Assembly (NCBI GenBank): GCA_963796265.1
Contig: CAWCLA010000004.1
Span: 5,873-69,872, forward strand
From: an uncultured Actinomycetes bacterium
Lineage (GTDB): Bacteria > Actinomycetota > Thermoleophilia > Gaiellales > Gaiellaceae
DNA length: 64,000 nt
Direction: 5' to 3'
Under the pieces are notes generated by a model, which saw only the letters and a list, made by a program, of their open reading frames with translations, ran no database searches and was not told where the DNA came from. Below, piece after piece: positions 11,045 to 54,114 of this stretch (position 1 is its first letter; the number at the start of each line of letters is the position of its first letter). The translations under genes and the position numbers were made by a program.

Positions 11045-11908
11045 TCAGTTTCGGGCGTCCGCAACCGCGCCGATCCGACGCGAACGCGCTGCCGTTACCG
11101 CGTTTTGCAGCACCATTGCGATGGTCATCGGCCCCACGCCACCGGGAACCGGCGTCATGTAGGCGGCTCGCTCCATTGCGCCGGGATCGACGTCTCCGAG
11201 CACCCGGCGACTGCCCTCCTCGCGGTTCATCCCGACATCGATCACGGTCGCGCCCGCCTTCACCATGTCGGCCGAGATCAGATGCAGGCGGCCGACGGCG
11301 GCGACGAGGAGGTCGGCGTCGAGAGTGTGCCGCTCGAGGTCCCGTGTGCGGGAGTGGCAGATCGTCACGGTCGCGTTGCGCTGGAGGAGGAGATGCGCCA
11401 TCGGCTTGCCGACGATGGCGGAGCGGCCGACGACGACGGCACGCGCGCCCTCGAGCGGGATCTCGTACTCGTCGAGCATCCGCATGATCCCGAGCGGCGT
11501 GCCCGGGACGAGCGCCGGCCGGCCGAGGTAGAGGCGGCCCGCGTTGACGGGATGGATGCCGTCGACGTCCTTGGCGGGCGCGATCGCCTCGATCGCGCGG
11601 TTCTCGTCGAGATGGTCGGGGAGCGGAAGCTGGACGAGGAGGCCGTCGATGTCGGCGTCGGCGTTGAGCTCGGCGATGGTCGCGAGCAGCGCTTCCTCGC
11701 TCGTCGAGGCGGGCAGCTCGAGGTCGCGCGCCTCCATCCCCGCCTGCTCCGCGGCCTTCTGCTTCAGGCCGATGTAGATGTGCGAGGCGGGGTCGTCGCC
11801 GACGAGAACGGTGGCGAGGCCGACGTGGCCCAGCTCGGCGACGGACGCGGCCACCTCCTCTCGCACCTTCGCGGCGAGGGTCTTGCCGTCGATGAGCGTT
11901 GCGGGCAC
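11045..11908 (-). CDS. folD: Bifunctional methylenetetrahydrofolate dehydrogenase/cyclohydrolase
   Basis: LATVLVGDDPASHIYIGLKQKA..VQLPLP..DVDGIHP..GRSAIVGKPMAHLL..PVPGGVGPMTIA. Confidence 0.95.
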   Translation of the reverse strand: MPATLIDGKTLAAKVREEVAASVAELGHVGLATVLVGDDPASHIYIGLKQKAAEQAGMEARDLELPASTSEEALLATIAELNADADIDGLLVQLPLPDHLDENRAIEAIAPAKDVDGIHPVNAGRLYLGRPALVPGTPLGIMRMLDEYEIPLEGARAVVVGRSAIVGKPMAHLLLQRNATVTICHSRTRDLERHTLDADLLVAAVGRLHLISADMVKAGATVIDVGMNREEGSRRVLGDVDPGAMERAAYMTPVPGGVGPMTIAMVLQNAVTAARSRRIGAVADARN

Positions 11909-11933
11909 GAGGCGAGGTTATAGCCTCCGCTCG

Positions 11934-13115
11934 ATGCGTCTTTCGCGAAAGAACGACCCGGATTCGGTGCGAGCCCGCCAGGGGGCGCTCGGCCTGCCGG
12001 AGGTCGACCTCGCGCCGTACGCGCGCGCCGCCGAGTCGGTGACCGGCCTCGTGTCGATCCCCGTCTCCGTCGCCCAGCTCGCGGTCTCGCTCGGCGAGTA
12101 CGAGCTGTCGGAGGACGGCGACGTCGTCGAGACCGGCCGGACGGATGAGGAGGCCGTCGTCCCGCTGGCCCACACCGAGGGCGGGTTGACGGCGTCCGTC
12201 CAGCGCGGCGCCAAGGCCATCGCGGAGTCCGGCGGAGCCCGAACGTATGTAATCGCCGACAGGATCACCAGAGCATCCTGTTTCATCTGCAAAGACTCAG
12301 GCGACGCGCTCGCGCTCGCGCGCTGGATCGAGGAGCAGGTGCCGGCGATGCGCGAGTTCCTGCGCGCCGCGGACCGGCCGGAGCTCTCGAGCTACGCGGT
12401 ACTGCGCGAGGCGAAGACGCACGTCGTCGGGCCGATGTGCCACGTCCTCTGGCGCTTCACGACCGGCGACGCCTTCGGCGCGAACATGATGACCCGCAAC
12501 GCCTACGCGCTGAACATGGCCTACGTGCTGCCGCAGGCGCCGGTGCCCGTCGAGAGGACGATCCTCGAGGCGAACATGGGCGGCGACAAGAAGCCGTCGT
12601 TCGAGTACTTCCAGCAGGGTCACGGCAAGACCGTGATCGCCGAGACGACGCTGACCGAGGCGGCGATCGAGCGCGTGCTGCGGACGACGCTCCACGACCT
12701 CGAGGAGCTCGCCTGGGCGGGGACCCACGGCGCGGTCGCGTCCGGGATGCAGTCGGTCGCCTTCACTCCCGCCTCTGCGATCGCAGCTGTCTTCGCCGCG
12801 ACCGGTCAGGATCTCGGGCTCGTCGCGACGAGCTCGATGGCGCACGGGACGGAGCAACGCGTCGAGGGCGGCCTCCACGTCTCGATCCGCTTTCCCGGGC
12901 TCGAGGTGGGGACGGTCGGCGGCGGCACGACGCTCCCCGACCCGAAGCGGTGGCTCGAGCTGATGGGCTGCGCGGGGCCCGGGAAGGTCTACCGGCTCGC
13001 CCAGCTCGTGGCCGCGACGGCCCTGGCCCTCGAGATCAGCGCCTCTGCCGCGATGGCGACGGCCGGCAGCGAGAACTTCTTCCGCGCCCACTTCGAGCGC
13101 GGCGGGATGCGCTAG
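11934..13115 (+). CDS. Soluble HMG-CoA reductase-like protein (class I-like catalytic domain only)
   Basis: PLAHTEGGLTASVQRGAKAI, GDAFGANMMT, GGDKKPS, ATGQD and GTVGGGT match the conserved HMGR blocks. There is no membrane domain. The first ATG follows the divergent folD start by 25 nt. Confidence 0.8.
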   Translation: MRLSRKNDPDSVRARQGALGLPEVDLAPYARAAESVTGLVSIPVSVAQLAVSLGEYELSEDGDVVETGRTDEEAVVPLAHTEGGLTASVQRGAKAIAESGGARTYVIADRITRASCFICKDSGDALALARWIEEQVPAMREFLRAADRPELSSYAVLREAKTHVVGPMCHVLWRFTTGDAFGANMMTRNAYALNMAYVLPQAPVPVERTILEANMGGDKKPSFEYFQQGHGKTVIAETTLTEAAIERVLRTTLHDLEELAWAGTHGAVASGMQSVAFTPASAIAAVFAATGQDLGLVATSSMAHGTEQRVEGGLHVSIRFPGLEVGTVGGGTTLPDPKRWLELMGCAGPGKVYRLAQLVAATALALEISASAAMATAGSENFFRAHFERGGMR

Positions 13116-13121
13116 AGAGCC

Positions 13122-14270
13122 GTGCTCTACGACCCGGCACAGTTCGAGCCGCTGACCGAAGAACCGTGGGATCCGGCGCGCGCCGAACGCGCGATCGCCG
13201 CGATCGTCGCCGACGCCGACACGGCCTTCGACCCGGACGCGCTCTGGCCGGCGCACGAGTGGGACGGCTGGCAGGCGGCACTCCCGCTGAAGAATCTCTA
13301 CGTAGGCGCCGCCGGCGTCGTCTGGGCGCTCGCCGCGCTGCGCCCGGTCTCCCAATCGCGGCTCGATCTCGCAGCGGCCGCGCTGCGCGCTCTCGAGCGC
13401 TGGCGCGCGGAGCCGGACTTCACGGAAGGCGAGGAGATCCCGGCACTGGCCGGGGCCGCCCTCTTCTACGGCGAGACGGGGCCGCTGCTCGTCTCGCTCC
13501 TGCTCGCGCCCGACGCAGGCCGCGCCGATCGCCTGCACGAGCTCGTGCGCGCGAACCGCGACAACGAGGCGAACGACCTCTTCTACGGAGCGCCGGGCGC
13601 GCTCCTGGCCGCCGCCGCGATGCGCGATGCCACCGGAGAGCGACGGTGGGAGGAGGCGGCACGCGAGACCGCCGACGCCGTCGCGACCCGTCGCGAGGAG
13701 GACGGTCTCTGGACGCAGCGTCTCTGGGGCGGGGAGTTCAAGGCCGTCGGCGCCTCGCACGGCGCCGTCGCGAACGTCCGGGCGCTCCTCCACGTCGACC
13801 ATCCCCGCAACGACGGGCTCCGGCGCGAGACGGCCGCGCTCCTCGCCCGGCACGCGAAGCGCGAGGACGGCCTGGCGAACTGGACGGACGAGCCGAGGCT
13901 GCAGTGGTGCGTCGGCGCGCCCGGGATCCTCGTCGCAGCCTGGGACTACCTCGACGAGGATCTCGTCCTCGCCGGCGCCAACCTGATCTGGCAGGCCGGC
14001 GCCCACGGCGACGAGAAGGGCCACGGCATCTGTCACGGCACCTCGGGCAACGGCTTCGCGCTCCTCAAGACGTTTGCCCGTACCGGCGACGAGCTCTGGC
14101 TTGGCCGCGCACGCCGGTTCGCGGTCCACGCTCTCGCTCAGGCGGAGCGAGTAGCGGCGGCGAACGGCCGCCGCCGCTACTCGCTCTTCACCGGCGACCT
14201 CGGCACTGCGCTCTTCGCCTCCGCCTGCCTCGACCCCGACCCGCGGTATCCGGTGCTCGACAGGCTCTAG
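13122..14270 (+). CDS. LanC-like (lanthionine synthetase C family) protein
   Basis: SHGAVAN, WCVGAPGI and GICHGTSGNG correspond to the His and Cys/Cys-His zinc and catalytic motifs of LanC. GTG start 6 nt after the HMGR-like stop. Confidence 0.8.
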   Translation: MLYDPAQFEPLTEEPWDPARAERAIAAIVADADTAFDPDALWPAHEWDGWQAALPLKNLYVGAAGVVWALAALRPVSQSRLDLAAAALRALERWRAEPDFTEGEEIPALAGAALFYGETGPLLVSLLLAPDAGRADRLHELVRANRDNEANDLFYGAPGALLAAAAMRDATGERRWEEAARETADAVATRREEDGLWTQRLWGGEFKAVGASHGAVANVRALLHVDHPRNDGLRRETAALLARHAKREDGLANWTDEPRLQWCVGAPGILVAAWDYLDEDLVLAGANLIWQAGAHGDEKGHGICHGTSGNGFALLKTFARTGDELWLGRARRFAVHALAQAERVAAANGRRRYSLFTGDLGTALFASACLDPDPRYPVLDRL

Positions 14271-14743
14271 CCGGAGGGCGTGCTGAGGCGGTGGTGGCGG
14301 ATGAGAGCGAGTGCGGTTGCGAGGGCGAGGACGAGGAAGCCGAGGAGGCCGAGCTCCAGCAGGAGGTTCGTGAGCCCGCGCCCGGATACGGCCGGGTGCT
14401 CGAACTGGGCGGTGACGATCAGGATTCGCCGTACGACCGCGATCAGGCCGATGAAGAGGAACGGTTCGGCGACGATCTCGTGGGTTCGCAGCACGAAGCG
14501 GAGCGTGTAGACGAGCTCGGCGATGATCAGGGTGAGCAGGATGCGGTCGAGGATGGTGACCGCGGTGTTGACCGCGCCGGCACCGGTCGAGATCGCGTGC
14601 GCGAGCTCGTGCACGGTCCCTACGAGGACGAGGACGGCGGCGACCGCGAGCAGGATCGCCACCGCCGCGTAGAGCACTTCCTCGAAGCGAACGAGGCCGC
14701 CGAGCAACCTCGCACTCGGCCCGGATTGAGTCGGGGCAGTCAC
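14267..14743 (-). CDS. Small membrane protein, PsiE-like (four hydrophobic segments)
   Basis: The C-terminal part of ORF 14267..15415: FEEVLYAAVAILLAVAAVLVL..ILDRILLTLIIAELVYTL..PFLFIGLIAVVRRILI. I chose the GTG at 14743, after the upstream stop; the start is uncertain. Confidence 0.5.
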   Translation of the reverse strand: MTAPTQSGPSARLLGGLVRFEEVLYAAVAILLAVAAVLVLVGTVHELAHAISTGAGAVNTAVTILDRILLTLIIAELVYTLRFVLRTHEIVAEPFLFIGLIAVVRRILIVTAQFEHPAVSGRGLTNLLLELGLLGFLVLALATALALIRHHRLSTPSG

Positions 14744-14766
14744 GGTCGGGGGTGTCGGCTCGGTGC

Positions 14767-15405
14767 TCAGGCGGGCTCCTGCTGATCGGGTGCCACCCAA
14801 CGGTAAACGGGATCGGCCGCGAGCGAGAGCTCTGCGACATCGACGATCCGGGGGGCGGCGGCGAAGCAGCGCTGCCAGGCGAGCCCCGCGCGCCAGACAG
14901 CGGGGTGCCGAATTGCCTGGCCGACGGTCGCGCGGACATTGCTGCCGTGGAAGACGAACACCGCCTCGCTCTCGCCCAGATACACCTCGTGGGCATTGAG
15001 TCCGAGCATGGCCGGATCGAGCGGTGGCCCCTCCGCGAGCAGAGTGTGCGCCCGACCGAGACAGCCCGGCTCGAGCGGTACCGAGACGGCGAGCACGTCG
15101 CCGCCGACACGTCGGGTGAGCGACACGAGCAGGTCGGCGATCTCGGGCAGCAGCGCCATGCCGAGCGGCGCCACCTGCACCGGCGCCAGGTTCAGCCGCT
15201 CGAGCACCAGCGTCGGATAGCCGTTCAGCCGCTCGCTCGGGCGACCGCCGACCCGCACCGCGGACAGATCGGCGACGGGAATCTCCAGCTCCAGCTCGCC
15301 CGAGCGGCCACGCCCGGACAGACGCAGCCGATTCCGCTCGACCTCGAGCGCGCCCGCCGCCTCGAGCCCACCGTTCCGGAAGATCACGGCGAAGCGCTCG
15401 TGCAT
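14767..15405 (-). CDS. Hypothetical protein (212 aa)
   Basis: High GC3 and normal composition. It sits 23 nt upstream of the PsiE-like gene. I recognised no family. Confidence 0.5.
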   Translation of the reverse strand: MHERFAVIFRNGGLEAAGALEVERNRLRLSGRGRSGELELEIPVADLSAVRVGGRPSERLNGYPTLVLERLNLAPVQVAPLGMALLPEIADLLVSLTRRVGGDVLAVSVPLEPGCLGRAHTLLAEGPPLDPAMLGLNAHEVYLGESEAVFVFHGSNVRATVGQAIRHPAVWRAGLAWQRCFAAAPRIVDVAELSLAADPVYRWVAPDQQEPA

Positions 15406-15500
15406 CCAGCCACATTCGGCCCCCCGGGGGCGGCTCGCATCCGCATGCCTGCCGCGGGCGACCGCGGGAAACTACGCATCCATGGCCGCTTGACGGTACG

Positions 15501-15971
15501 TCAGCCCGCGGTGGGCCGCTCGGCGTAGGCCACGCGCTCGAACGGCCACTCGGTCTCGAGCCAGCCCGTGACGGACCGCCAGAGCTCTACGTCGAGCTCG
15601 GACCGACTCGCCCGCACCCAGGAGCGCACACGCGCATCATGCTCTTCGCTCCTGTCGGCATAGATGTACACGCACCCGATCACGTCACCGGTCGCAGGAT
15701 CGAGGACCGTGTACGTGAAGCCCACCCGGTTCTCGAAGTCGTCAGCGTGTCCTTGCAGGTCGCGCAGGTTGTCCGCCAGGTTGCGGTCGTCGGGCCAGGA
15801 GCTCGCCTGCCAGCCAGGCGTCAGGTGGATGTGCTCCACGGACGACGACCACGCCTCATAGTCGGATTCGTTGTGCTGCGGCCCGAGCGGCTCGAGCGTG
15901 AACCTCTCCGTCGCAAGAGCGAGCGGGGCGACGAATCCGGGCGGCACGAAGGGGCCTTCCACGACACCCAC
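15501..15971 (-). CDS. GNAT-family N-acetyltransferase (probable)
   Basis: 156 aa with ERFTLEPLGPQH..FTYTVLDPATGDVIGCVYIY..RVRSWV, the typical pattern of Acetyltransf_3-like proteins. Confidence 0.6.
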   Translation of the reverse strand: MGVVEGPFVPPGFVAPLALATERFTLEPLGPQHNESDYEAWSSSVEHIHLTPGWQASSWPDDRNLADNLRDLQGHADDFENRVGFTYTVLDPATGDVIGCVYIYADRSEEHDARVRSWVRASRSELDVELWRSVTGWLETEWPFERVAYAERPTAG

Positions 15972-15998
15972 ATCTTGGTCGAACCAGCGGCCGGGTGT

Positions 15999-16685
15999 CT
16001 ACTCGAGAATCGCCACGTAGTAGCCGCTGCCGCTCTCTTCGAGCAGGCGGCGGATCCGCCACTCTGTGCCTTCGAGGATGGCCGCCATCTCGTCCGGTGA
16101 GACGATCAGGTAGTCGAACCAGGGCCCGATGAGGTCGCGATAGCGAACACGCAGCCGTAACTGGCCGGCCATTCGGCCCCGCTCGAGGTTGCGCTCCTGA
16201 TAGGCGAGATGGGTCGGGTCTTTCGTCGCATATGGGTTGTTCGAGCCTGCCACGATTCTGTCGGCCAGCGGGCGGAGCCGCCGAAGCAGGCGCCGGGCCG
16301 TGCTCGGCGAGCCGAAGAGGCCGAAGTTGTTGCCGAACATGACGATCGTGTCGAACCGCCCGACCGAGTCGTCGAGGTCTTCGAACGCGAGCAGCCGCAC
16401 GTCGCGGACTCCGCGTCGACGTGCCACCTCGACCGCGCCGGCCGACACGTCGATCCCGACGACGCTTCTTCCACGCCGCTGCAGTTCCAGAGCCGCTCGC
16501 CCCGCGCCCACACCGGCGTCGAGCACCCTTCCGCGCACCCACCGGAGTGCGCGACGCTCCACCGCGGGCCACCGAGCGACGGGTGCGAAGTAGACCGTCT
16601 TCCCGGCGTCGAGGAACCCGTCGTCCCGCTCGATGATCTCCAGGCCCGTCCCGTCGAGGAGCATCTGCCCAAAGGCGTCCGCCAT
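15999..16685 (-). CDS. Class I SAM-dependent methyltransferase
   Basis: VLDAGVGAGRAALELQRRGRSVVGIDVS (motif I) followed by FDTIVMFGNNF. Confidence 0.8.
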   Translation of the reverse strand: MADAFGQMLLDGTGLEIIERDDGFLDAGKTVYFAPVARWPAVERRALRWVRGRVLDAGVGAGRAALELQRRGRSVVGIDVSAGAVEVARRRGVRDVRLLAFEDLDDSVGRFDTIVMFGNNFGLFGSPSTARRLLRRLRPLADRIVAGSNNPYATKDPTHLAYQERNLERGRMAGQLRLRVRYRDLIGPWFDYLIVSPDEMAAILEGTEWRIRRLLEESGSGYYVAILE

Positions 16686-16778
16686 GCTCCGAACCTACAC
16701 CCCGACGGCGCAGGAGACACGACGCCGCCCTGCGCCAGTGTGCGGGAATGACGCCTGACGGCTACTGCGAGCGGCAGC

Positions 16779-17324
16779 TCAGCCCCAAGGCAGGCGTGAC
16801 CAGTACGGCGGCCGCGCTCGCCGGAACCTCTCGGCAGTCGCATAGACCTGCTCGGGATCGGATGTCTCGTTCTCCACACTCGCGCCGAAGCGCGCTGCGA
16901 GGTCCGACACCGGATACCGCACTTCCGGGCTTATGTGCGCGCCAACCATCACGACCACGCACGGCGCGTCACCAGCCCCCACGAAGGCGTGCTCCGTCCA
17001 GGGCGGCGAGTGGAAGAAGTCCCAGGCTCGGAGGCGTCGCTCCTCGTCCTCGACAAGCAGTCTGCACTCACCGGCGAGAACAAGAAACGCCTCCTGATTC
17101 GCCTCGGCGTGGTAGACGCTGCTCTGGCCCGGCTCGAGGACGGTCACATTGATCCCGAGCTGCGGGAACTCGATCGGAGCTTCGCCGTACTCGTTCGCGA
17201 ACCAACACGCTGCCCCCCTCGTCTCCGAAGAGAACCACTCGGCATCGCCGACGTTGACGACAAACCAACCCTCCGTGACGGGGGCAAGGCCGGAGCCAGC
17301 GTCCTCAAGCCTCGCTTCGTTCAC
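16779..17324 (-). CDS. Cupin-domain protein
   Basis: The C-terminal 181 aa of ORF 16779..18542: GINVTVLEPGQSSVYHAEANQEAFLVLAGECRLLVEDEE..WDFFHSPPWTEHAFVG. GTG start at 17324 (uncertain). Confidence 0.65.
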   Translation of the reverse strand: MNEARLEDAGSGLAPVTEGWFVVNVGDAEWFSSETRGAACWFANEYGEAPIEFPQLGINVTVLEPGQSSVYHAEANQEAFLVLAGECRLLVEDEERRLRAWDFFHSPPWTEHAFVGAGDAPCVVVMVGAHISPEVRYPVSDLAARFGASVENETSDPEQVYATAERFRRARPPYWSRLPWG

Positions 17325-17501
17325 GCAGCAGATTCTCGCAGTCCAAGCGACGGCTGTCTCGTCCGGGCCCGGCGTCCTCTCGCCCGGCGAGAAAGCAACC
17401 ACGGGGGCCGGTCGACGTTCGCCGGGCCCGGGACGAACCGCGGCGCGTTCCGCGCGCGCCACCGCTGCCGCCGGGCCGGCCGAAGGGACTACGCTGCGCG
17501 C

Positions 17502-18602
17502 ATGGAGTCGACGATGTGGGCGGTGCGGAAGGAACGCCCGGCATCCGGCCTCGATCTCGTCGAAATTCCGGTGCCGGCGATCCGCCCCGACGAGGTGCTC
17601 GTTCGGGTCGAGGCGGCGAGCATCTGCGGCACGGACCTCCACATCTACAACTGGGACGGGTGGTCTCAGCAGCGGATCCGGCCGCCGCTGACGCTGGGCC
17701 ACGAGTTCGCAGGCACGGTCGTCGAGGCCGGCCCGCTCGTCCGGAACGCGCAGGTCGGCGACTACGTGTCGGCCGAGAGCCACGTCACCTGCGGCGTCTG
17801 CTTCAACTGCCGCACCGGGCGAGCGCACATGTGCGAGCAGACCCGGATTCTCGGCGTCGACCGCGACGGCGCGTTCGCCGAGTACGTCGCCGTTCCCGAC
17901 AGCGTGCTCTGGCAGAACGACCGGGACAAGCTGCCGCCCGAGATCGCGACGCTGCAGGAGCCCTTCGGCAACGCCGTCTTCGCGGTCGGGCACGCCGACC
18001 TCGCCGGGAAGACGGTCGGGATCCTCGGCTGCGGCCCGGTCGGCCTGTTCAGCATCGGCATCGCGCGCGCCTCCGGCGCGGGGCGCATCCTGGCCACCGA
18101 CACGAAAGCCTTCCGGCTCGAGCTCGCGCGGCAGATGGGCGCGCACGCAGCCGTCGACGTGTCCTCGACGAACAACACAGCCGCCGCGCTCCTCGAGCTG
18201 AACGAGGGCGAGCGTCTCGACGTCGTCTTCGAGATGTCGGGCGCGCCCGAGGCGATCGAGACGGCCCTCGTGGCGGCCCGGAACGGCGGCCGCGTGATCC
18301 TGTTCGGCATCCCGGCCCGCCCCGTGGAGCTCGACATCGCGGAGACGCTGATCTTCAAGAACCTCGACGTCTCGGCGGTGAGCGGCCGGCAGGTCTGGGA
18401 CAGCTGGTACCGCACACGTTGGCTCCTCGAGCACGGCGTCGTCGACCTGCGCCCGCTCGTCACGGCGGAGTGCGCCCTCGACGACTACGAGCACGCGTTC
18501 GAGCTGCTCGCGAGCGGGGCGGCCTGCAAGATCGTGCTCCACCCGCAGGCCGGCGCGCTGGCCGGAAGCGCCTCCGGCGCCGCCGGGGAGGCGGCCGCGT
18601 GA
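17502..18602 (+). CDS. tdh: L-threonine 3-dehydrogenase (Zn-dependent MDR family)
   Basis: ASICGTDLHIY..GHEFAGTVVE..CGVCFNCRTGRAHMC..GCGPVGL, coupled to kbl downstream. Confidence 0.9.
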   Translation: MESTMWAVRKERPASGLDLVEIPVPAIRPDEVLVRVEAASICGTDLHIYNWDGWSQQRIRPPLTLGHEFAGTVVEAGPLVRNAQVGDYVSAESHVTCGVCFNCRTGRAHMCEQTRILGVDRDGAFAEYVAVPDSVLWQNDRDKLPPEIATLQEPFGNAVFAVGHADLAGKTVGILGCGPVGLFSIGIARASGAGRILATDTKAFRLELARQMGAHAAVDVSSTNNTAAALLELNEGERLDVVFEMSGAPEAIETALVAARNGGRVILFGIPARPVELDIAETLIFKNLDVSAVSGRQVWDSWYRTRWLLEHGVVDLRPLVTAECALDDYEHAFELLASGAACKIVLHPQAGALAGSASGAAGEAAA

Positions 18603-19792
18603 CCGCGCTCGACACCGAGATCCGGGGCGAGCTCGACGGGCTGCGGACGGCGGGGACGTACAAGCGGTTCAACATCCTCGAGAGCCCGCAGGGGCCGGTG
18701 GTGCGGATGGAGGGCCGCGGCGAGGTGATCGTCCTCTCCTCGAACAACTACCTCGGCCTCGCCGACCACCCCGACGTCGTCGCGGCGGGAATCGAGGGGC
18801 TGCGCGCCTACGGCGCGGGAACCGCGTCGGTGCGCTTCATCTGCGGCACCTTCGCCCCGCACATCGAGCTCGAGCGGGAGCTCGCCGAGCTCTCCGAGAC
18901 GCCGGCGGCGCTCACGTACGTCTCCTGTTGGAACGCGAACGAGGCCGTGATCCCCGCGCTCACCGACGACAAGACGGTGATCATCTCGGACGAGCTCAAC
19001 CACGCCTCGGTCATCGACGGCGTGCGGCTCTCGAAGCCGGAGCGCAAGCTCGTGTACCGCCACTCGGACATGGACGAGCTCGGGGAGGCGCTGCGCTCGT
19101 GCGAGCCCGGCCGGCGCAAGCTGGTCCTCACGGACGGCGTCTTCTCGATGGAGGGCGACCTCGTGCGGCTGCCGGACATCCTCGAGCTCGCGCGCGCACA
19201 CGACGCGATCGTGCTCGTCGACGACTCCCACGGCGTGGGCGTGGTCGGGAAGACCGGGCGGGGTGTCGCCGAGCACTTCGGCGTCCTCGGCGAGGTCGAC
19301 GTGCTGACGGGCACGCTCGGCAAGGCGCTCGGCGGCGCGGCGGGCGGCTACGTGGCCTCGACCGAGGAGGTGTGCGACCTGCTCGCGCAGCGCTCCCGGC
19401 CACAGCTCTTCTCCAACGCGCTGCCGCCGACGGTCGCCTGCTCGGCCCGCGCCGCCGTCCACGTCCTCCGCACCCGTCCGGACCTCGTCGCCCGTCTGCA
19501 CGAGAACACGCGCTGGTTCCGGGGCGCGCTCCGCGAGGCGGGATTCGATCCGCTGCCCGGCGAGGCGGCCATCATCCCGATCATCGTCGGCGAGACGGCG
19601 CGCGCAATCGAGCTGTCGGAGAAGCTGCTCGAGCGCGGCGTCTTCGTGACCGGTTTCGGCTACCCGGTCGTGCCGGAGGGGGCGGCGCGGGTCCGGGTGC
19701 AGATGTCGGCGGCGCTCGAGCCCGCACACCTCGAGCGCGCACTCGCCGCCTTCGTCGAGGTCGGACGCGAGAGCGGCCTGCTCCCGGCCTGA
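18599..19792 (+). CDS. kbl: Glycine C-acetyltransferase (2-amino-3-ketobutyrate CoA ligase)
   Basis: SSNNYLGLADHP..DELNHASVIDG..DDSHGVGVVG..TGTLGKALGG (PLP Lys). The GTG overlaps the tdh stop (GTGA). Confidence 0.92.
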   Translation: MTALDTEIRGELDGLRTAGTYKRFNILESPQGPVVRMEGRGEVIVLSSNNYLGLADHPDVVAAGIEGLRAYGAGTASVRFICGTFAPHIELERELAELSETPAALTYVSCWNANEAVIPALTDDKTVIISDELNHASVIDGVRLSKPERKLVYRHSDMDELGEALRSCEPGRRKLVLTDGVFSMEGDLVRLPDILELARAHDAIVLVDDSHGVGVVGKTGRGVAEHFGVLGEVDVLTGTLGKALGGAAGGYVASTEEVCDLLAQRSRPQLFSNALPPTVACSARAAVHVLRTRPDLVARLHENTRWFRGALREAGFDPLPGEAAIIPIIVGETARAIELSEKLLERGVFVTGFGYPVVPEGAARVRVQMSAALEPAHLERALAAFVEVGRESGLLPA

Positions 19793-19902
19793 GCGAGACA
19801 TCGGGGTAAACCCGGAGGCCCAGAGCCGCATCGTCGCGGATGCGCGCGGCTGCCGGCCTCGGGATGCTGGGATTCCCGAGAGAAGTCGAGGAGGAGAGTC
19901 TG

Positions 19903-21036
19903 ATGGCATCTGCAGCGAAGGAAGCCGACCTCGCCGGTCCGGGCATCGGCAGCTACGACGAGCTCGAGCGCGTGCTCCCGGACGACTACACGCCGCTGCT
20001 CGGCCCGAGGGAGACCATGCGCGGTCTCTTCGCCGCGAAGCGACTGATCGAGGACCGGTTGAGCGAGGAGCTGAACCTCACCCAGGTGCAGGTGCCGCTG
20101 ATCGTCGACCGCGAGAGCGGCGTGAACGACTACCTCGACCGTGACGGCTCACGCACGCCCGTCTCCTTCCACATAGCGAACGACCACGAGCAGCACCCGA
20201 TCGACGCCGAGGTCGTACAGGCGGCGACGAAGTGGAAGCGGCTGGCGCTGCGCCAGTTCGGGATGCGGGCCGGCGAGGGGCTCCTCACCGACATGCGGGC
20301 GGTGCGCAAGGACTACTTCCTCGACCACGACCACAGCGCGTACGTCGACCAGTGGGACTGGGAGCGCGCGATCCGGCCGCAGGACCGCACGCTCGACTAC
20401 CTCACGGCCACGGTGCGCTCGATCTGGAAGGTGATCAAGGAGGCGGAGGGTCTTCTCCACGAGCGCTACCCCGTGCTCGGCGAGGCGTATCCGCCCCTGC
20501 CCGACGAGCTCGAGCTCCTCCACGCCGAGGACCTCCTCGAGGCCTATCCGGACCTCCCGCGGAAGCAGCGCGAGACGGCGATCCTGCAGGAGCATCCCGC
20601 GGTCTTCATCTACGGGATCGGCTGGCCGCTCGCCGACGGGCTGCCGCACGAGCTGCGGGCGGCGGACTACGACGACTGGTCGACGGAGACCCTCTCCGCC
20701 GACGGGCGCCCGATGCACGGGCTCAACGGGGACATCCTCGTCTGGAATCCCGTCACGCAACGGCGGCACGAGCTCATGTCGGGCGGCATCCGCGTCACGA
20801 AGGAGTCGCTCGTCCGCCAGCTCGAGCTGTCAAGGCAGCTCGACTTCCTCGAGCTCCCCTACCACCAGGCGATCATGCGGGACGAGATCCCACTCTCGAT
20901 CGGCGCCGGCATCGGCCAGTCGCGGACGATGATGCTCCTCCTGCGCAAGGCCCATCTCGGCGAGGTGAGCGTCACGGTCTGGCCGCAGGTGCTGAAGCGG
21001 ATGTGCGCAGAGCGGGACATCCACGTACTCGACTGA
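19903..21036 (+). CDS. asnA: Aspartate-ammonia ligase (asparagine synthetase A)
   Basis: HSAYVDQWDWERAI, APDYDDWS-like AADYDDWS, LNGDILVWNPV and SIGAGIGQSRTMMLLL match E. coli AsnA blocks. ATG at 19903 after GGAGGAG. Confidence 0.88.
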   Translation: MASAAKEADLAGPGIGSYDELERVLPDDYTPLLGPRETMRGLFAAKRLIEDRLSEELNLTQVQVPLIVDRESGVNDYLDRDGSRTPVSFHIANDHEQHPIDAEVVQAATKWKRLALRQFGMRAGEGLLTDMRAVRKDYFLDHDHSAYVDQWDWERAIRPQDRTLDYLTATVRSIWKVIKEAEGLLHERYPVLGEAYPPLPDELELLHAEDLLEAYPDLPRKQRETAILQEHPAVFIYGIGWPLADGLPHELRAADYDDWSTETLSADGRPMHGLNGDILVWNPVTQRRHELMSGGIRVTKESLVRQLELSRQLDFLELPYHQAIMRDEIPLSIGAGIGQSRTMMLLLRKAHLGEVSVTVWPQVLKRMCAERDIHVLD

Positions 21037-21081
21037 AGGAGCATGATTCCCGCTTCGGAGCTTCTCTCGTAGGATCACCGG

Positions 21082-24000
21082 ATGGCGTGCCGGTTCTGTG
21101 GCGCCGAGAATCGAGAAGAGGCCCGCTTTTGCGATGCGTGCGGCGCCGCGCTCGAGCCTCCGGCGAAGACGCCTGCCGAGGAGCGCAAGGTCGTGTCGGT
21201 GCTGTTCGGCGACCTCGTCGGCTTTACGGAGGCCTCCGAGACGGCCGACCCCGAGGATGTGCGGGCGAGGCTCCGCCCATTCCACGAGCTGCTGCGAGAG
21301 CGGATCGAGGCGTACGGGGGCACGGTGGAGAAGTTCATCGGAGATGCCGTGATGGCCGTCTTCGGCGCCCCTCAGGCACACGAGGACGATGCCGAGCGCG
21401 CCGTCCGTGCCGGGCTTGCGATCCTCGAGGCACTGGCCGCGCTGAATGCCGAAGACCCGGCGCTTTCCCTCGCCGTCCGGATCGGGATCAACACCGGGGA
21501 GGCGCTGGTCGAGCTCGAGGCGCATCCCGAGCACGGTGAGGGATTCGTGACCGGCGACGTGGTCAACACCGCCGCGCGGATCCAGTCGGCGGCCCCGGTC
21601 GGGGGAGTCGCCGTCGGCGAGGACACGTTCCGTGCGACGGAGCCCGTGTTCGAATGGGAGCGCCTGCCCGCGGCAGAGGTGAAGGGCAAGGCCGAGCCCG
21701 TCGCGCTGTGGCGGCCGCTGGCGGCGCGGGCGAGATTCGGCTCCGACCTGATCCGCCGGCTCTCGACACCTCTCGTCGGCCGCGAGCTCGACGTCCTCCA
21801 GCTACGAACGGTGTTCGAGAAGGCGGCCAGAGAGCCGGCGGTGCAGCTCGTCACGATTGTCGGCGAGCCGGGCGTCGGGAAGAGCCGGCTCGTAGCCGAG
21901 CTCGGCGCTCACGTCGACTCCCTGCCGGAACTCGTCCGCTGGCGCCAGGGGCGGTCCCTCCCCTACGGCGAGGGCGTTGCCTTCTGGGCGCTCGGGGAGA
22001 TGGTGAAGGCCCAGGCGGGCATCTACGAGTCCGATCCGCCCGACGAGGCGGAACGAAAGCTCGAGCGGGTGCTTCCCCAGGTCGACGAGGCGGCCTGGCT
22101 GAAGGCATGCCTCTTGCCGCTGCTCGGGATCGACTCGGGTAGCTCGCCCAGCAGGGAGGAGTCGTTCACAGCCTGGCGCCGCTTCCTGGAGTCGATCGCC
22201 GAGCGAACGCCCGCCGTGCTCGTGTTCGAGGATCTGCACTGGGCGGACGACCCGCTGCTCGACTTTCTCGAGTATTTCGCCGACTGGGCGCAGGGCGTTC
22301 CGCTCCTCGTCGTCTGCACGGCGCGGCCCGAGCTGTACCAACGCCGTCCGGCGTGGGGAGCGGGCCTGCGCAATGCGACGACCCTCAGCGTGTTCCCGCT
22401 GTCGGCGTCGGAGACGGCGACACTCGTCTCCGCGCTCCTCGAGCAGGCGGTGCTGCCGGCGGAGACGCAGCAGGCGATCCTCGAGCGCGCGGGCGGCAAC
22501 CCGCTGTACGCCGAGGAGTTCGTGCGCATGCTGCGCGACCGGGGCCTCGTCGACGGGCGAGGCAACCTGTACACGCCGGCCGACGTCCCGTTCCCCGACT
22601 CGCTGCAGGCGCTGATCGCCGCACGGCTCGACACGCTTCCGGGCGACGCAAAGTCGCTTCTACAGGACGCGGCGGTGCTGGGGAAGGTCTTCTGGTCGGG
22701 AGCCGTCACGGCGATCGGCGAGCGCGATCCGGTCGAGGTCGAGCGGATCCTGCACGAGCTTGCTCGCAAGGAGCTCGTTCGTCCGGCCCGGCAGTCGTCG
22801 ATGCAGCGCGAGCACGAGTTCGGCTTCTGGCACGTCCTCGTGCGTGACGTGGCGTACGGACAGATTCCCCGTGCCCAGCGCGCCGCAAAGCACCTCGCCG
22901 CGGCACGGTGGATCGAGGAGAAGGCCGGAGAGCGAGTCGAGGACCTCGCCGACGTGCTCGCCTACCACACGGGTGAGGCGCTCTCGCTCACGGAGGCCGC
23001 GGGGGCGGCCGGCGTCACCGACGCGATCGCCGAGAACGCACGCCGGTATGCACTGCTGGCAGGAGAGCGCACACTCGGCTTGGACACCACGAAGGCGGTG
23101 GAGCTCTTCGAGCGGGCACTGCAGCTCACGCCGGAGTCGGACCCAAGCTACCCGCACGTGCTCTCGCGGGTCGCCCGGGCGGGATTTCACGCAGGTCGTG
23201 TCGCCGAGGCCAATGACGCGCAGGCACGGGTTGTCGCGCTCTTCCGCGAACGCGGGGACACGCGTGCCACCGGCGCCGCGCTGACGAGCCTCAACCTGTT
23301 CAGCGCAGGCGTGGAATGGGAGACGATCGAAGAGGCGATCGCCCTGCTCGAGCAGGTCCCGCCCGGCCCCGAGCTCGTTCTCGCCTACGAGCAGGCCGCC
23401 GGGATCATGCTCGTGACCGGCAACTACGAGGGCGCGGTCGCGACCTCGACGCGTGCACTCGAGCTCGCACGAGAGCTCTCACTTCCGGTGCCGGCCCGCA
23501 CGCTCGGCTTCCGCGGCAGCGTTCGATGCAACCTCGGCGACCGAGACGGGCTGGCCGAGCTCGAGCAGGCCCGTGAGCTCCTGCTCAGGGAGGGCCATGG
23601 ACGTGATGCCGTCGTGGCGACACACAACCTCGCGATCGCCCACTGGACGCTCGAGGGCTCGGCTGCCGCGCTTCCGCTCTTCGAGGAGGCGCGCGCGCTC
23701 GCAACCACGCGCGGCTTGACCGAAACCCGGCTCTCGAACGCCGTGACCCCGCTCTACCACCTGGTGGAGACGGGCCGCCTCGAAGAGACGATCGCACTCG
23801 CGGCAGATCTGCACGACGAGGTCGACGCCTCCCAGATCCCTGTCTACGCGGCCCAGCTCAGCGCGGCGGCCGCCCGCGCGTTCTACGAGGTCGGGGACCC
23901 GGCGGCCGGGGCCGAGGCCGAGCGTGGGCTCGCAATAGCGCGCGGGCTGAACTATCCCACGGTGCTCGCCATTGCCGCGGCGCCCGCCGCACTGTGCGCA

Positions 24001-24474
24001 GCCGGCGCGGGCGACGCGGCAACGGCGCGCGCTCTGTTGGCCGAGTTGCTCGACTGGCCGGAGCGGACGGTGAACGAGGAGTACCTCGGTCGCCTGCCGG
24101 CCCTGGTCCGGTGTGCGCTCGTCGCCGGCGACGACGCACTCGCGGCCCGCCTCGTCGAGGGCGTCAGCGATGTCCAGCCGCTCTACGAGAACGCGCTCGT
24201 CGCCGCCCGGGCCCAGGTGATCGAGGCGGAAGGCGACCGCCGTGCAGCCGAGACCGCGTTCGGTGACGCGGCACGACGCTGGGAGGCGTTCGGCAGCACC
24301 CTCGAGCAGGCCTACGCGCTGCTCGGGGCAGGACGCTGCCTCGCCGGGCTCGGCGACCGTGCCGCCGAGCAGACGTTGCGCCGGTCGCGGGCGCTCTTCG
24401 ACGCCATGGGTGCACGCCCGCGCATCGCCGAGTGCGATGGACTGCTCTCCGGCACCCTGGCCGAGGGCGCGTAG
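21082..24474 (+). CDS. Zinc-ribbon / class III nucleotidyl cyclase / STAND (AAA_16) ATPase / TPR multidomain protein
   Basis: CRFCGAEN..CDACGA; cyclase motifs FGDLVGFT, KFIGDAVMAVFG and GINTGEALV; Walker A GEPGVGKSRL; Walker B LVFEDLHWAD; a long helical-repeat C-terminus. I saw no LuxR-type HTH at the end. Confidence 0.85.
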   Translation: MACRFCGAENREEARFCDACGAALEPPAKTPAEERKVVSVLFGDLVGFTEASETADPEDVRARLRPFHELLRERIEAYGGTVEKFIGDAVMAVFGAPQAHEDDAERAVRAGLAILEALAALNAEDPALSLAVRIGINTGEALVELEAHPEHGEGFVTGDVVNTAARIQSAAPVGGVAVGEDTFRATEPVFEWERLPAAEVKGKAEPVALWRPLAARARFGSDLIRRLSTPLVGRELDVLQLRTVFEKAAREPAVQLVTIVGEPGVGKSRLVAELGAHVDSLPELVRWRQGRSLPYGEGVAFWALGEMVKAQAGIYESDPPDEAERKLERVLPQVDEAAWLKACLLPLLGIDSGSSPSREESFTAWRRFLESIAERTPAVLVFEDLHWADDPLLDFLEYFADWAQGVPLLVVCTARPELYQRRPAWGAGLRNATTLSVFPLSASETATLVSALLEQAVLPAETQQAILERAGGNPLYAEEFVRMLRDRGLVDGRGNLYTPADVPFPDSLQALIAARLDTLPGDAKSLLQDAAVLGKVFWSGAVTAIGERDPVEVERILHELARKELVRPARQSSMQREHEFGFWHVLVRDVAYGQIPRAQRAAKHLAAARWIEEKAGERVEDLADVLAYHTGEALSLTEAAGAAGVTDAIAENARRYALLAGERTLGLDTTKAVELFERALQLTPESDPSYPHVLSRVARAGFHAGRVAEANDAQARVVALFRERGDTRATGAALTSLNLFSAGVEWETIEEAIALLEQVPPGPELVLAYEQAAGIMLVTGNYEGAVATSTRALELARELSLPVPARTLGFRGSVRCNLGDRDGLAELEQARELLLREGHGRDAVVATHNLAIAHWTLEGSAAALPLFEEARALATTRGLTETRLSNAVTPLYHLVETGRLEETIALAADLHDEVDASQIPVYAAQLSAAAARAFYEVGDPAAGAEAERGLAIARGLNYPTVLAIAAAPAALCAAGAGDAATARALLAELLDWPERTVNEEYLGRLPALVRCALVAGDDALAARLVEGVSDVQPLYENALVAARAQVIEAEGDRRAAETAFGDAARRWEAFGSTLEQAYALLGAGRCLAGLGDRAAEQTLRRSRALFDAMGARPRIAECDGLLSGTLAEGA

Positions 24475-24484
24475 GCTCGAAGGC

Positions 24485-25297
24485 TCAGCCGGCGGGCAGG
24501 CGGACGTCCGAGACGTCGAGGCCGAGGGAGTTCGCGAGCCGGACGCCGTGGTTCAGCTCCTCGCGAAGCCGCTCCCGGTCGCGCGCCTCCATCAGGTGCC
24601 CGATCATCTCGCGCACCTTCGGCCGCCACAGCACGTGGTTCGCGAAGATCGGGAGCATCGTGTTCGCCGCGTCGACGAGGCGGACGCGCACCTTCTGCCC
24701 CGCCGACGCGAGCAGCACCCGCTCGTACGCCATCCCGGCGCCATGGTGGATCCCGTCGTCGACGGCGAGCCGGTTGCAGAGGTCCTCGAGCACCGTCCCG
24801 CGCGACGAGCGCGCGATGAGGCGGAAGCGCGGGATGATCAGCCGCTCGAAGAAGACCTGCATGAGGAAGACCTTCTCCTCGAGCAGGTCGGCCTCGAGGA
24901 ACATGTGCGCGAGCTGGTCGAGAAACGGGTCGCGCTCCCCCTCCCCACCGACCTGGCCGATCAGCCGCAGCCACGCCTCGGTGTGGCGCGACTCGTCCTG
25001 CACCATCGTCGAGTAGTAGAGGCGCGCCTCCGGGTCGGGCGCGGCCGCGAGCAGCTGCGACGCCATCTCGCAGGCGAACACGTCCGCCTGGAGCTGCTGC
25101 ATGATCACCGAGCGCCAGATGTCCCGGCGCCGCGCCTGCCGCTGGGGCGACCCCTTCCCCTCCGGCACGAACGGGATGTCACCCCACGGCACGTCGGCCA
25201 CCTGCCATTCCTGGCGCTTCGCGAGGTGGTAGAAGCGGAGGACGCCCGCGTACTCCTCCCGGGACGCGGGTTCCGCAGGAACGGGGTCGGCGGACAT
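24485..25297 (-). CDS. Ferritin-like di-iron oxygenase family protein (AurF-like; tentative)
   Basis: 270 aa from the internal ATG. It has two carboxylate-His motifs (QDESRH and DDGIHH) in helical context. Confidence 0.6.
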   Translation of the reverse strand: MSADPVPAEPASREEYAGVLRFYHLAKRQEWQVADVPWGDIPFVPEGKGSPQRQARRRDIWRSVIMQQLQADVFACEMASQLLAAAPDPEARLYYSTMVQDESRHTEAWLRLIGQVGGEGERDPFLDQLAHMFLEADLLEEKVFLMQVFFERLIIPRFRLIARSSRGTVLEDLCNRLAVDDGIHHGAGMAYERVLLASAGQKVRVRLVDAANTMLPIFANHVLWRPKVREMIGHLMEARDRERLREELNHGVRLANSLGLDVSDVRLPAG

Positions 25298-25618: not shown

Positions 25619-25730
25619 CGGTGGCTGCCACCGGTCGCGCACTGCCGAAACAGGAGCGCCCGCCCGCCTCGCATTGCGAGGCAGCCGCCGCTTGAACCGC
25701 CGTATCGCGCAGGAGATAATCCAGGCGCCG

Positions 25731-27014
25731 ATGTCCGTCGAGGAACGCGCAAGCGCCGCCGAGAGGGTTCTCGCGGCGCGTGAACGCTATGTCGCCCGCG
25801 GCGTCTCGACGCCCGCACTCGTCGTCGCGCGCGCCGAGGGAGCGCGCGTCTGGGACGTCGACGGCCGTGAGTTCCTCGACTTCGCCGGCGGAATCGCGTG
25901 CCAGAACCTCGGCCACGGCCCGTCGGCGGTGGTGGCCGCGATCCACGAGCAGGTCGACCGCTACCTCCACCAGTGCTTCATGGTCGGGACGTACGAGCCG
26001 TACGTGGAGGTCTGCCGCCGGCTCGACGAGCTCTGGCCCGGCGACGCGGAGACGAAGTCGATCCTCGTCAACTCGGGTGCCGAGGCGGTCGAGAACGCAG
26101 TCAAGATCGCACGCGCGGCGACCGGGCGGGCCGGCGTCGTCGTCTTCGACCGCGCCTTCCACGGCCGGACGAGCCTCACGATGGCGATGACGGCGAAGCT
26201 CGTCTACAAGCAGGGATTCGGGCCTCTCGCGACGGACGTCTACCGCGCCCCGGCCCCGTATCCGTTCCGCGGCGTCTCGACGGAGGACGCGCTCGCCGGC
26301 CTCGAGCTCCTCTTCGAGCAGGACGTCGACCCGAAGTCCGTCGCCTGCATCGTGCTCGAGCCGGTGCAGGGCGAGGGCGGCTTCATCCCGATGCCGCCGG
26401 AGTTCGTGCAGGCGCTCCGCCACATCTGCGACGAGCACGGGATCCTCTACGTCGACGACGAGGTGCAGTCGGGCTGCGGACGCACGGGCACGATGTGGGC
26501 GATCGAGCAGCTGGGCGTCGAGCCGGACCTGCTCGTGTCGGGGAAGACGCTCGGCGGCGGGCTCCCGCTCGCAGGCGTGACCGGGCGCGCCGAGTTGATG
26601 GACGCCGTCCACGTCGGCGGGCTCGGCGGCACGTTCGGCGGGAACCCCGTCGCCTGCGCGGCCGCGCTCGCCGTGCTCGACGAGCTCGCGGCACCCGGCT
26701 TCGCCGAGCGGGCCGCGCACGTCGCGGCGGTTCTCCGCGGGCGGCTCGACGAGATCGCGGTCCGGCAGCCGCTCGCCGGAGAGGTGCGCGGCCTGGGCCC
26801 GATGCTCGCGCTCGAGCTGCGCGAGCCGACACCCGGCGCGGCGAAGGCGACGACCGCAGCCGCGTTCGACCAGGGGTTGCTCCTCCTCTCGTGCGGCCTG
26901 TACGGGAACGTCATCCGGCTCCTCCCGCCGCTCACCGCGTCGGACGAGGAGCTCGAGCGCGGGCTGACGCTGCTGGAGGAGGCACTTGGCGACGCTGGCG
27001 CTCACGGCGGCTGA
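25731..27014 (+). CDS. gabT: 4-aminobutyrate (omega-amino acid) aminotransferase, class III
   Basis: DFAGGIACQNLGH..NSGAEAVENAVKIAR..FHGRT..EPVQGEGGF..DEVQSGCGRTG..SGKTLGGGLP. Confidence 0.88.
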   Translation: MSVEERASAAERVLAARERYVARGVSTPALVVARAEGARVWDVDGREFLDFAGGIACQNLGHGPSAVVAAIHEQVDRYLHQCFMVGTYEPYVEVCRRLDELWPGDAETKSILVNSGAEAVENAVKIARAATGRAGVVVFDRAFHGRTSLTMAMTAKLVYKQGFGPLATDVYRAPAPYPFRGVSTEDALAGLELLFEQDVDPKSVACIVLEPVQGEGGFIPMPPEFVQALRHICDEHGILYVDDEVQSGCGRTGTMWAIEQLGVEPDLLVSGKTLGGGLPLAGVTGRAELMDAVHVGGLGGTFGGNPVACAAALAVLDELAAPGFAERAAHVAAVLRGRLDEIAVRQPLAGEVRGLGPMLALELREPTPGAAKATTAAAFDQGLLLLSCGLYGNVIRLLPPLTASDEELERGLTLLEEALGDAGAHGG

Positions 27015-33069: not shown

Positions 33070-33255
33070 GCGAGATGGCAGGGCCAGGCAAGCCCGCGCA
33101 GTTCAAGCCTGTTGAACGGTTCTAGCCAAAGAGTGGCTCCGGACCAACCGAAAGACGGGCCTGCCACACCCTCTTCCGACCTACGACTACGTGTGACGTC
33201 AGGTTGGGCCAGGAGCGCGCTCTGGCTCAAAAGCTAAGGGGAGAAGTTGGTGGAG

Positions 33256-54061: not shown

Positions 54062-54114
54062 GGCCGCAAGCCTTCCCCCGACGAGTGAGCGAACGATGAA
54101 GAGAACGCGCGCCG

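Follow-up and report, generated by a model that had tools for sequence, protein, structure and literature searches.

Why should a gene for an enzyme with the fold of hydroxymethylglutaryl-CoA reductase (HMG-CoA reductase, HMGR) lie directly upstream of a gene for a LanC-like zinc protein? The question is raised by a 64,000-nucleotide (nt) stretch of DNA from an uncultured Gaiellaceae bacterium (contig CAWCLA010000004.1; hereafter the window, meaning this whole stretch), which has a G+C content of about 71% and whose nearest public proteins are labelled Gaiellaceae bacterium (class Thermoleophilia). Look-ups by exact sequence retrieved no record for either protein of the pair, nor for the 100%-identical P0121. 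The two genes in question are:

11934-13115, + strand: gene 1, a reductase with the HMGR class-I fold, of FcrA type; soluble, 393 aa (Pfam/NCBIfam, site mapping, tree, AlphaFold2)
13122-14270, + strand: gene 2, a LanC-like (LanCL-like) zinc protein; stand-alone, 382 aa (PF05147, fold, motif table)

An initial interpretation made from the letters and translations of the window (the sequence-only reading) took the pair as a module for unrecognised thiol chemistry, on the premise that the reductase had lost its catalytic histidine. We found no literature in which LanC-like proteins and HMG-CoA reductase are treated together. The evidence presented below points to a different explanation, which we consider probable: the two are unrelated genes that were joined by a lineage-specific rearrangement and form no conserved module, the first coding for an FcrA-type reductase and the second for a stand-alone LanCL-like protein. 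What it draws on was observed directly: which genes are present, which residues are conserved, where the proteins fall in trees and how often given genes are neighbours.

The reductase retains the catalytic tetrad of class-I HMGRs

Gene 1 is publicly annotated as hydroxymethylglutaryl-CoA reductase and its product matches PF00368 (HMG-CoA_red) with an E-value of 9e-76. As this match covers residues 27-387 of the 393, too little of the protein is left over for a membrane domain, in agreement with the sequence-only reading, and the blocks TEGGLTAS, GDAFGANMM, GGDKKP, ATGQD and GTVGGGT that it had quoted are all found in the protein. An AlphaFold2 model with a predicted local distance difference test (pLDDT) value of 87.8 gave TM-scores of 0.79 to archaeal HMGR (6hr7/6hr8) and 0.75 to human HMGR in Foldseek searches. 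The score against the NCBIfam model TIGR00533 is 194 bits, far under the cut-off of 441.8; thus, the reductase is divergent, and this divergence is unrelated to the catalytic His.

Residues were numbered by anchoring on the human catalytic domain, checked against PDB 1DQ8 (448 residues, no indels, two mismatches), and sites were mapped in a MAFFT alignment with 110 representatives. All four residues of the catalytic tetrad are kept: E559, K691, D767 and H866 of the human enzyme correspond to E82, K219, D293 and H386 of the query. The sequence-only reading had the catalytic His replaced by Ser, having aligned the query's 'AGS' with 'AGH'; the residue after Ala-Gly is, however, human H861, a non-catalytic position that varies (H/Q/E) among homologues. 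Catalytic H866 lies in 'KSH' and has its counterpart in the H386 of 'FFRAH', and the Ala-His at this point is, unlike position 861, nearly invariant among homologues. The argument for a new chemistry from a lost His was thus built on a misalignment. At the other end of the tetrad, E559 is the Glu of 'TTEG' and corresponds to E82; E34 of 'AAESVTG' was also considered as the catalytic Glu and rejected, being the Glu of the ENVIG motif.

An FcrA-type substrate pocket

FcrA is a class-I HMGR homologue that uses NADPH to reduce acyl-CoA of at least C14 to the alcohol, leaves HMG-CoA unreduced and is insensitive to simvastatin (PMC11948995, ISME J 2025). It is defined by retention of the tetrad together with replacement of Ser684 by Glu, of Lys735 (which appears in print as Lys795) by a small residue and of Leu862 by a bulky one, and 57-77% of the bacterial annotations as 'class I HMGR' belong to it, in genomes without the mevalonate pathway; genomes with only an FcrA-type copy lack that pathway (PMC11948995).

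The pocket signature of the query is E212, G263, T278, S281, A370 and F382, and the three FcrA substitutions S684E, K735G and L862F are all present in it as E212, G263 and F382. The spacings (K-7, K+44, +30 and H-4) are those of the N. pharaonis enzyme with its E360/K367/G411/D441/W528/H532. Canonical comparators carry S/K/H/N at 684/735/752/755 in 4/4 cases and Leu at 862 in the three that reach this position. Among the best representatives from a library of 1.84 billion sequences, the FcrA pattern is common to 86, and P0352 is the only canonical one.

A neighbour-joining tree of the query, 100 sequences with the FcrA signature and four canonical HMGRs (human, Arabidopsis, M. thermolithotrophicus and P0352) separates the canonical enzymes from the 101 others with 95.5% bootstrap support; the query belongs to a clade of 15 members (bootstrap 1.0) that also includes proteins from Chloroflexota, Firmicutes and Thermaerobacter. 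As this tree holds no experimentally tested FcrA, membership in the FcrA group rests on the signature, the spacing and the split from canonical HMGR. Thus, of the two properties by which the sequence-only reading would have recognised an ordinary HMGR, the intact His is present, while the grouping with bona fide HMGRs is not found. Its statement that the locus does not look like isoprenoid synthesis is borne out by the pocket substitutions and the separation in the tree. The long (800-950 aa) best matches from outside the subfamily were considered as eukaryotic HMGRs, a view that we rejected: they have the core at ~200-515 followed by a C-terminal extension and carry the FcrA signature. In a tblastn search of PLSDB plasmids, a Chloroflexota homologue recovered only distant Vibrio/Streptomyces matches at 26-31% identity.

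The query thus shares with the FcrA proteins of N. pharaonis and Ca. Promineifilum breve the class-I HMGR fold, the Glu/Lys/Asp/His tetrad and, at identical spacing, a Glu for Ser684, a Gly for Lys735 and an aromatic residue in place of Leu862; further, its relatives adjoin PlsC-type acyltransferase or other lipid genes, as reported for some FcrA genes (PMC11948995). It differs from them in lacking the N-terminal lipid-binding (Lad) domain, in having an insert of ~10 residues after 'IPVSV' and one of 3 residues before the C-terminal helix, in carrying Ser at 755 along with Thr at 752 and Ala at 853, and in a conserved di-iron neighbour of its subclade, of which PMC11948995 makes no mention. 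With class-I HMGRs (1DQ8, 6HR7) it has in common the fold (TM 0.75-0.79), the tetrad, the DKKP/GQD/GTVGGGT blocks and the C-terminal helix bearing the catalytic His, whereas it departs from them at Ser684, Lys735, His752, Asn755, Leu853 and Leu862, in scoring under the TIGR00533 equivalog cut-off and in lacking a mevalonate-pathway context in the 64 kb and in annotated neighbourhoods. This core Gaiellaceae protein of HMGR class-I fold and FcrA type is predicted to catalyze an NADPH-dependent four-electron reduction in which an acyl-CoA thioester yields CoA and a primary alcohol, with a bound aldehyde as the intermediate; the HMGR-like Glu/Lys/Asp/His machinery would act here in a pocket reshaped to take acyl chains other than HMG, such as unbranched ones.

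The reductase and LanC-like genes are rarely neighbours

In the window, both the coordinates and the junction sequence, TAG-agagcc-GTG with its 6-nt spacer, agree with the description of the pair as two open reading frames (ORFs) with a 6-nt gap. No terminator-like site was found between the genes, and a promoter/terminator scan of 11500-15500 was uninformative in either direction. The flanking genes are those named in the sequence-only reading:

11045-11908, - strand: folD, a conserved backbone neighbour (ORF; THF_DHG_CYH domains in the homologous locus L001)
14267-~14800 (start approximate), - strand: PsiE-family membrane protein gene (PF06146 at E 1.2e-10)

The former is divergent from the reductase gene, with start codons 25 nt apart, and the latter is convergent with the LanC-like gene, with stop codons that overlap by 4 nt.

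We assessed the conservation of the pair from both of its sides. For the reductase, a scan in which every GTDB species was represented by a single genome gave at least 575 stretches with a match, the best 80 of which were used; these all come from Gaiellaceae/Thermoleophilia genomes (77-95% identity) and 72 of them are informative, i.e. have at least 1.3 kb downstream. While the gatC-csp-folD-reductase synteny is kept in 79/80 loci, a LanC-like gene lies directly 3' of the reductase in only 2/72 informative loci (L018 and L031), to which the truncated L011 may be added. On the LanC side, 80 metagenomic loci comprise 35 with smc upstream or ftsY downstream, 27 located elsewhere, 17 that are too short and a single one (L088) in which the gene follows the reductase, i.e. 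1/63 informative loci. The neighbours of those located elsewhere are mixed, including helicase, sulfotransferase, HxlR, GNAT, BNR, methyltransferase and arginase genes. Reductase-LanC adjacency is therefore confined to a few soil Gaiellaceae genomes, and this lack of conservation, which the sequence-only reading had itself named among the outcomes that would count against it, leaves the proposal of a coupled two-gene module unsupported; the conserved partner of the reductase is instead a di-iron protein encoded further downstream.

Synteny searches of the 80 loci by tblastn with named window proteins reveal a Gaiellaceae backbone of the form folD(-)/reductase(+)/[0-9 kb variable]/270-aa protein(-)/class-III aminotransferase(+)/potA, whose remaining elements in the window are:

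13116-24484, no strand: variable island, 11.4 kb (backbone synteny and domain content)
24485-25297, - strand: putative ferritin-like di-iron protein gene, 270 aa, with motifs DESRH and DDGIHH; probable distant AurF-like homologue
25674-27014, + strand: class-III aminotransferase gene, next in the backbone (PF00202 at E 1e-118; synteny)

The 11.4-kb insert between the reductase and di-iron genes of the window compares with 0-9 kb across the 80 loci. It begins with the LanC-like gene, ends with a gene for an adenylate cyclase-AAA-TPR protein and further contains the PsiE-like gene (which none of the 80 compared reductase loci has), a methyltransferase gene, tdh, kbl, asnA and two unknown genes. 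The same slot is differently filled in other genomes: L010, the closest relative of the window by folD and reductase DNA, has tdh-kbl-asnA and no LanC, L018 holds LanC alone, and L031 carries a LanC of another paralogue group. The tree of LanC-like proteins shows two groups split at 0.99 bootstrap, with those of the window, L018 and L088 forming one clade (bootstrap 1.0) nested in the group of smc/ftsY type, a placement that points to relocation of the LanC-like gene of the window. Wherever the two genes are paired (the window, L011, L018, L031 and L088) they are spaced by 2-10 nt. In most Gaiellaceae the LanC-like gene is flanked by smc and ftsY or lies at various unrelated sites, and here it appears to have moved into a variable insertion site directly 3' of the reductase. 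Given this move to a directly downstream position, the two genes in the window are probably co-transcribed, as a positional accident.

The last gene of the island (21082-24474, +) codes for a 1130-aa protein with zinc-ribbon, adenylate-guanylate cyclase, AAA_16 and TPR modules, and a cyclase-AAA_16 gene of similar kind occurs near the LanC-like gene in L002. Among the reductase loci, L061 (JBLNEO010000200.1) is titled Pseudomonadota bacterium and displays the Gaiellaceae gatC-csp-folD-reductase synteny at 81% identity; this contig is probably mis-binned. Two contigs of the same bin carry the folD-reductase locus in the case of L017/L020 (MFD04967.bin.2.153) and L051/L054 (MFD02416.bin.3.135), which points to either a mixture of strains in each bin or a duplicated locus.

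A putative ferritin-like di-iron protein is the conserved neighbour of the reductase

The reductase subclade with the di-iron neighbour spans Gaiellaceae, Chloroflexota and Bacillota. The combination T752/S755/A853 (human numbering) is found in this subclade alone: position 755 is Ser or Thr throughout it, whereas N755 is kept in 86/86 other FcrA-type sequences and in 4/4 canonical HMGRs. The sister group, P0254/P0404, adjoins PlsC, lacks a di-iron neighbour and retains N752/N755/T853. Within Gaiellaceae the di-iron gene was found in 70/80 loci, and in 21 of these it is convergent with the reductase gene at a distance of less than 600 bp; as such close cases are mostly from more divergent genomes, they suggest that direct adjacency of the two genes is the ancestral state. 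In the non-Gaiellaceae contexts examined, an AurF-like homologue directly adjoins the reductase gene in 5/5 cases:

L085, 7030-8004: AurF-like gene beside the reductase homologue
L086, 9341-10411: AurF-like gene beside the reductase homologue
L168, 2308-3240: AurF-like gene beside the reductase homologue
L169, 6279-7205: AurF-like gene beside the reductase homologue
L170, 4051-4887: AurF-like gene beside the reductase homologue

The frames of reductase and AurF-like genes overlap in L085, L086/87 and L168 or otherwise lie within about 110 nt of each other.

The Gaiellaceae di-iron protein is 23-30% identical to these AurF-like neighbours. Its Pfam matches are sub-threshold (MiaE 17.8, the small chain of ribonucleotide reductase 16.7 and PaaA 16.4 bits), with a faint match to Ald_deCOase (E 0.086), and sequence and profile searches of the PDB likewise gave only sub-threshold matches (MiaE, E 0.2; ribonucleotide reductase small chain, E 1.3). 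The homologue from L086 passes the Pfam AurF cut-off (31.7 vs 29.6 bits), and an hhalign comparison of the Gaiellaceae protein with the AurF-like group gave E 1.6e-4 and a probability of 51%, from shallow profiles; the metal motifs DESRH and DDGIHH are conserved, and both align with those of the AurF-like neighbours.

The AurF-like proteins of L085, L086, L168 and L169 have a Cys-rich hydrophobic tail in their C-terminal 30-40 residues (e.g. CFGCLLTMFC, CGACAVALLC and CDTCFVALLC), which the L170 and Gaiellaceae versions lack. In a Firmicutes genome, a flavoprotein with Pyr_redox_2/AIF_C/Reductase_C domains is encoded upstream of the reductase gene and translationally coupled to it (L086 6754-8004; L087 1088-2338). 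This ferredoxin-reductase-like flavoprotein could be the electron donor for the di-iron protein.

Several relatives of the reductase are encoded near lipid genes: one context has a PlsC/DAGAT-type acyltransferase, MMPL and patatin, another FA_desaturase with DAGK_cat, and a further one an AMP-binding acyl-CoA synthetase; in L085, DAGK_cat and PlsC lie nearby, with ispH 1.5 kb away. The latter gene (LYTB; L085 5709-6557, - strand) belongs to the methylerythritol phosphate (MEP) pathway, which fits with the reductase not serving isoprenoid synthesis there.

These associations recall, as an analogy only, the cyanobacterial acyl-ACP reductase and aldehyde-deformylating oxygenase, where a thioester reductase is likewise paired with a ferritin-like di-iron oxygenase; one relative of the query has, in addition, an adjacent flavoprotein reductase. 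The reductase folds are, however, unrelated, and the di-iron protein here is AurF-like. The reductase and the di-iron protein (24485-25297) probably have a joint role in lipid or fatty-alcohol metabolism, although the substrates, the products and the very co-operation of the two are read from sequence. More specifically, we tentatively advance the notion, to be held as possible though rather unlikely, that the FcrA-like subclade with T752/S755/A853 and the ferritin-like di-iron oxygenase constitute a conserved module that makes a modified fatty-alcohol building block. The product could be long-chain alkane-1,2-diols; these replace glycerol in some Chloroflexi and Thermus lipids by a route still described as unclarified (PMC2615216). 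Alternatively, the pair could generate a hydrocarbon from the aldehyde intermediate.

A stand-alone LanCL-like protein

The product of gene 2 matches PF05147 (LANC_like) at E 5e-30, and the motifs SHGAVAN, WCVGAPGI and CHGTSGNG noted in the sequence-only reading are all found in it. Its key residues are the zinc ligands C263, C304 and H305, the acid H213, and K299, the equivalent of Lys317. The closest solved relatives by sequence are LanCL2 and LanCL1 (E 1.8e-16), and the structural model (pLDDT 90.3) likewise shows TM-scores of 0.66-0.69 to LanCL2/LanCL1 and 0.59 to NisC. LanCL1 and LanCL2 add glutathione to dehydroamino acids, with Arg364, Asp367 and Glu374 binding the gamma-Glu end of this thiol (PMC9934072). 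We mapped the positions listed in that study onto the window protein by alignment: Arg364, Asp367 and Glu374 correspond to A347, R350 and T357, none being kept, His274 corresponds to Gln, and His277, the enolate stabiliser, to Val264 at a position that is variable across the family. As the gamma-Glu-binding residues are not kept, the thiol substrate is unlikely to be glutathione.

The window protein therefore resembles LanCL1 and LanCL2 in its best sequence and fold matches, in the retained zinc ligands, acid His (H219 equivalent) and Lys317 equivalent, and in standing alone without a dehydratase; it differs from them in the absence of His277, His274, Arg364, Asp367 and Glu374. With class I cyclases of the NisC type it shares the alpha/alpha-toroid fold and the zinc site, whereas the match is weaker (TM 0.59), Val264 takes the position of NisC Tyr285, and LanB, a precursor peptide, a transporter and a protease are all missing from the window. 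The earlier view that this does not look like lanthipeptide synthesis is supported by the proximity to eukaryotic LanCL and the window's lack of a dehydratase or precursor. The LanC-like protein is predicted to add a thiol other than glutathione to an electrophile. Three of its 27 close homologues (P0165, P0214 and P0222) have an Asp in place of the first zinc Cys (LQWDVG vs LQWCVG) and keep the Cys-His.

Pathway genes and precursor peptides

Pfam scans of 40 window ORFs recovered no HMG-CoA synthase, mevalonate kinase, decarboxylase or prenyl enzyme, and no LanB, LanM or LanKC, in keeping with the absence of mevalonate/prenyl and lanthipeptide genes from the 64 kb that the sequence-only reading had remarked on. 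Nor were mevalonate-pathway genes found in the annotated neighbourhoods of the reductase relatives. The failure of the sequence-only reading to see a precursor peptide beside the pair is likewise matched by a check of the 300-nt flanks, in which no small ORF reaches the window's 95th percentile for Cys+Ser+Thr; moreover, with intergenic gaps of 25 nt and 6 nt and a 4-nt overlap, there is no space for one. In the literature, Gaiella or Thermoleophilia and mevalonate come together only in incidental mentions, the Gaiella occulta genome paper does not mention isoprenoids, and we found no work on Gaiella dealing with ether lipids, wax esters or fatty alcohols, nor any pertinent study of orphan HMG-CoA reductases.

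Weighing the alternative explanations

Could gene 1 nevertheless be a genuine, if divergent, HMGR that serves a mevalonate pathway encoded elsewhere or runs in reverse in mevalonate/HMG catabolism? Its class-I fold with intact tetrad, its public annotation and its status as a conserved core gene would be expected of such an enzyme. We nonetheless hold this to be very improbable: Ser684, Lys735 and Leu862 are replaced in the FcrA style and N755 along with them, the protein, at 194 bits, stays well short of the TIGR00533 cut-off of 442 and lies with the non-canonical sequences in the tree, and mevalonate-pathway genes were not found in the 64 kb or in annotated contexts, while one relative's contig has ispH of the MEP pathway and FcrA-only genomes are without the mevalonate pathway (PMC11948995). 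Closer to our own assignment is the view that gene 1 is a plain FcrA providing fatty alcohols for wax esters or ether lipids, with the di-iron gene being a syntenic neighbour of unrelated role. The FcrA signature of the query agrees with this, as does the fact that the Gaiellaceae di-iron gene is convergent rather than co-oriented and up to 11 kb off, its homology to the AurF-like partners being only moderately supported. It is harder to reconcile with the recurrence of the pairing, in overlapping or near-overlapping frames, on Chloroflexota and Bacillota contigs, and with the co-variation of the T752/S755/A853 pocket signature with the di-iron neighbour, which make it unlikely in our estimate. 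A last alternative retains a link between the two genes by restricting it to a sublineage, where the products of the co-transcribed reductase and LanC-like genes would share a substrate. The LanC-like protein could, for instance, handle the released thiol, or it could attach a thiol to an intermediate that is an unsaturated acyl group or an aldehyde. The spacing of 2-10 nt in all five paired sequences, the mutual nearest-neighbour relationship of L011, L018 and L031, by which the arrangement has lasted through some speciation, and the occupation of the L031 slot by a LanC of the other paralogue group speak in its favour. Yet the pair is present in just 2/72 and 1/63 informative loci and missing from the window's closest relative, L010; the LanC-like gene sits in an insertion hot spot with variable cargo, its family otherwise has heterogeneous neighbours, and the paralogue swap is explicable by recombination between highly similar 5' ends. 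Such a module thus appears quite improbable.

The explanation that we favour, an FcrA-type reductase and an unrelated LanCL-like gene brought together by rearrangement, has several observations to contend with. Position 755 lies in the catalytic hydrogen-bond network, so that with N755S the enzyme may differ from FcrA in substrate or chemistry, and the FcrA assignment itself is drawn from sequence features and a tree other than one holding the N. pharaonis or Ca. Promineifilum breve enzymes. In Gaiellaceae no lipid gene adjoins the reductase, and the homology of the Gaiellaceae di-iron protein to the AurF-like proteins is only moderately supported by the profile comparison. The mevalonate negatives cover the window and annotated neighbourhoods. 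Finally, the reductase-LanC pair is always tight where it is present, and this, together with the other-paralogue LanC in the L031 slot, leaves some room for a local link; the case for a functional connection in the few genomes with the pair is weak.

Further features of the window

Elsewhere in the window, four ORFs at 58838-60172 (-), 53324-54088 (+), 14767-15405 (-) and 15501-15971 (-) are well-coded with high G+C at third codon positions (GC3) and have no Pfam match at E <=1e-4. A 1346-codon frame, counted stop to stop, at 33238-37278 (+) contains DUF11, Big_3_5 and DUF7507 domains and probably encodes a surface protein; it has an odd codon-position composition (first-position G+C 0.54, GC3 0.92) and sits in the part of the window lowest in G+C (0.66-0.70 over 28-38 kb).

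Significance

Gaiellaceae rank among the most abundant Actinomycetota in soil. The protein that is universally annotated in them as 'HMG-CoA reductase' almost certainly plays no part in isoprenoid synthesis, and any metabolic reconstruction that counts it as a mevalonate step would, for this reason, be wrong. The sequence-only reading implied a new thiol chemistry built on a crippled HMGR, a premise that fails. What emerges in its place is a recognisable sub-type of FcrA with an altered residue of the catalytic network and a conserved di-iron partner in three phyla, which offers a testable lead to an unassigned pathway of lipid or fatty-alcohol metabolism in soil bacteria that are poorly represented in culture. 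The LanCL-like family lacking the glutathione-binding residues poses a separate question, that of how dehydroamino acids or other electrophiles are handled in bacteria that do not make glutathione.

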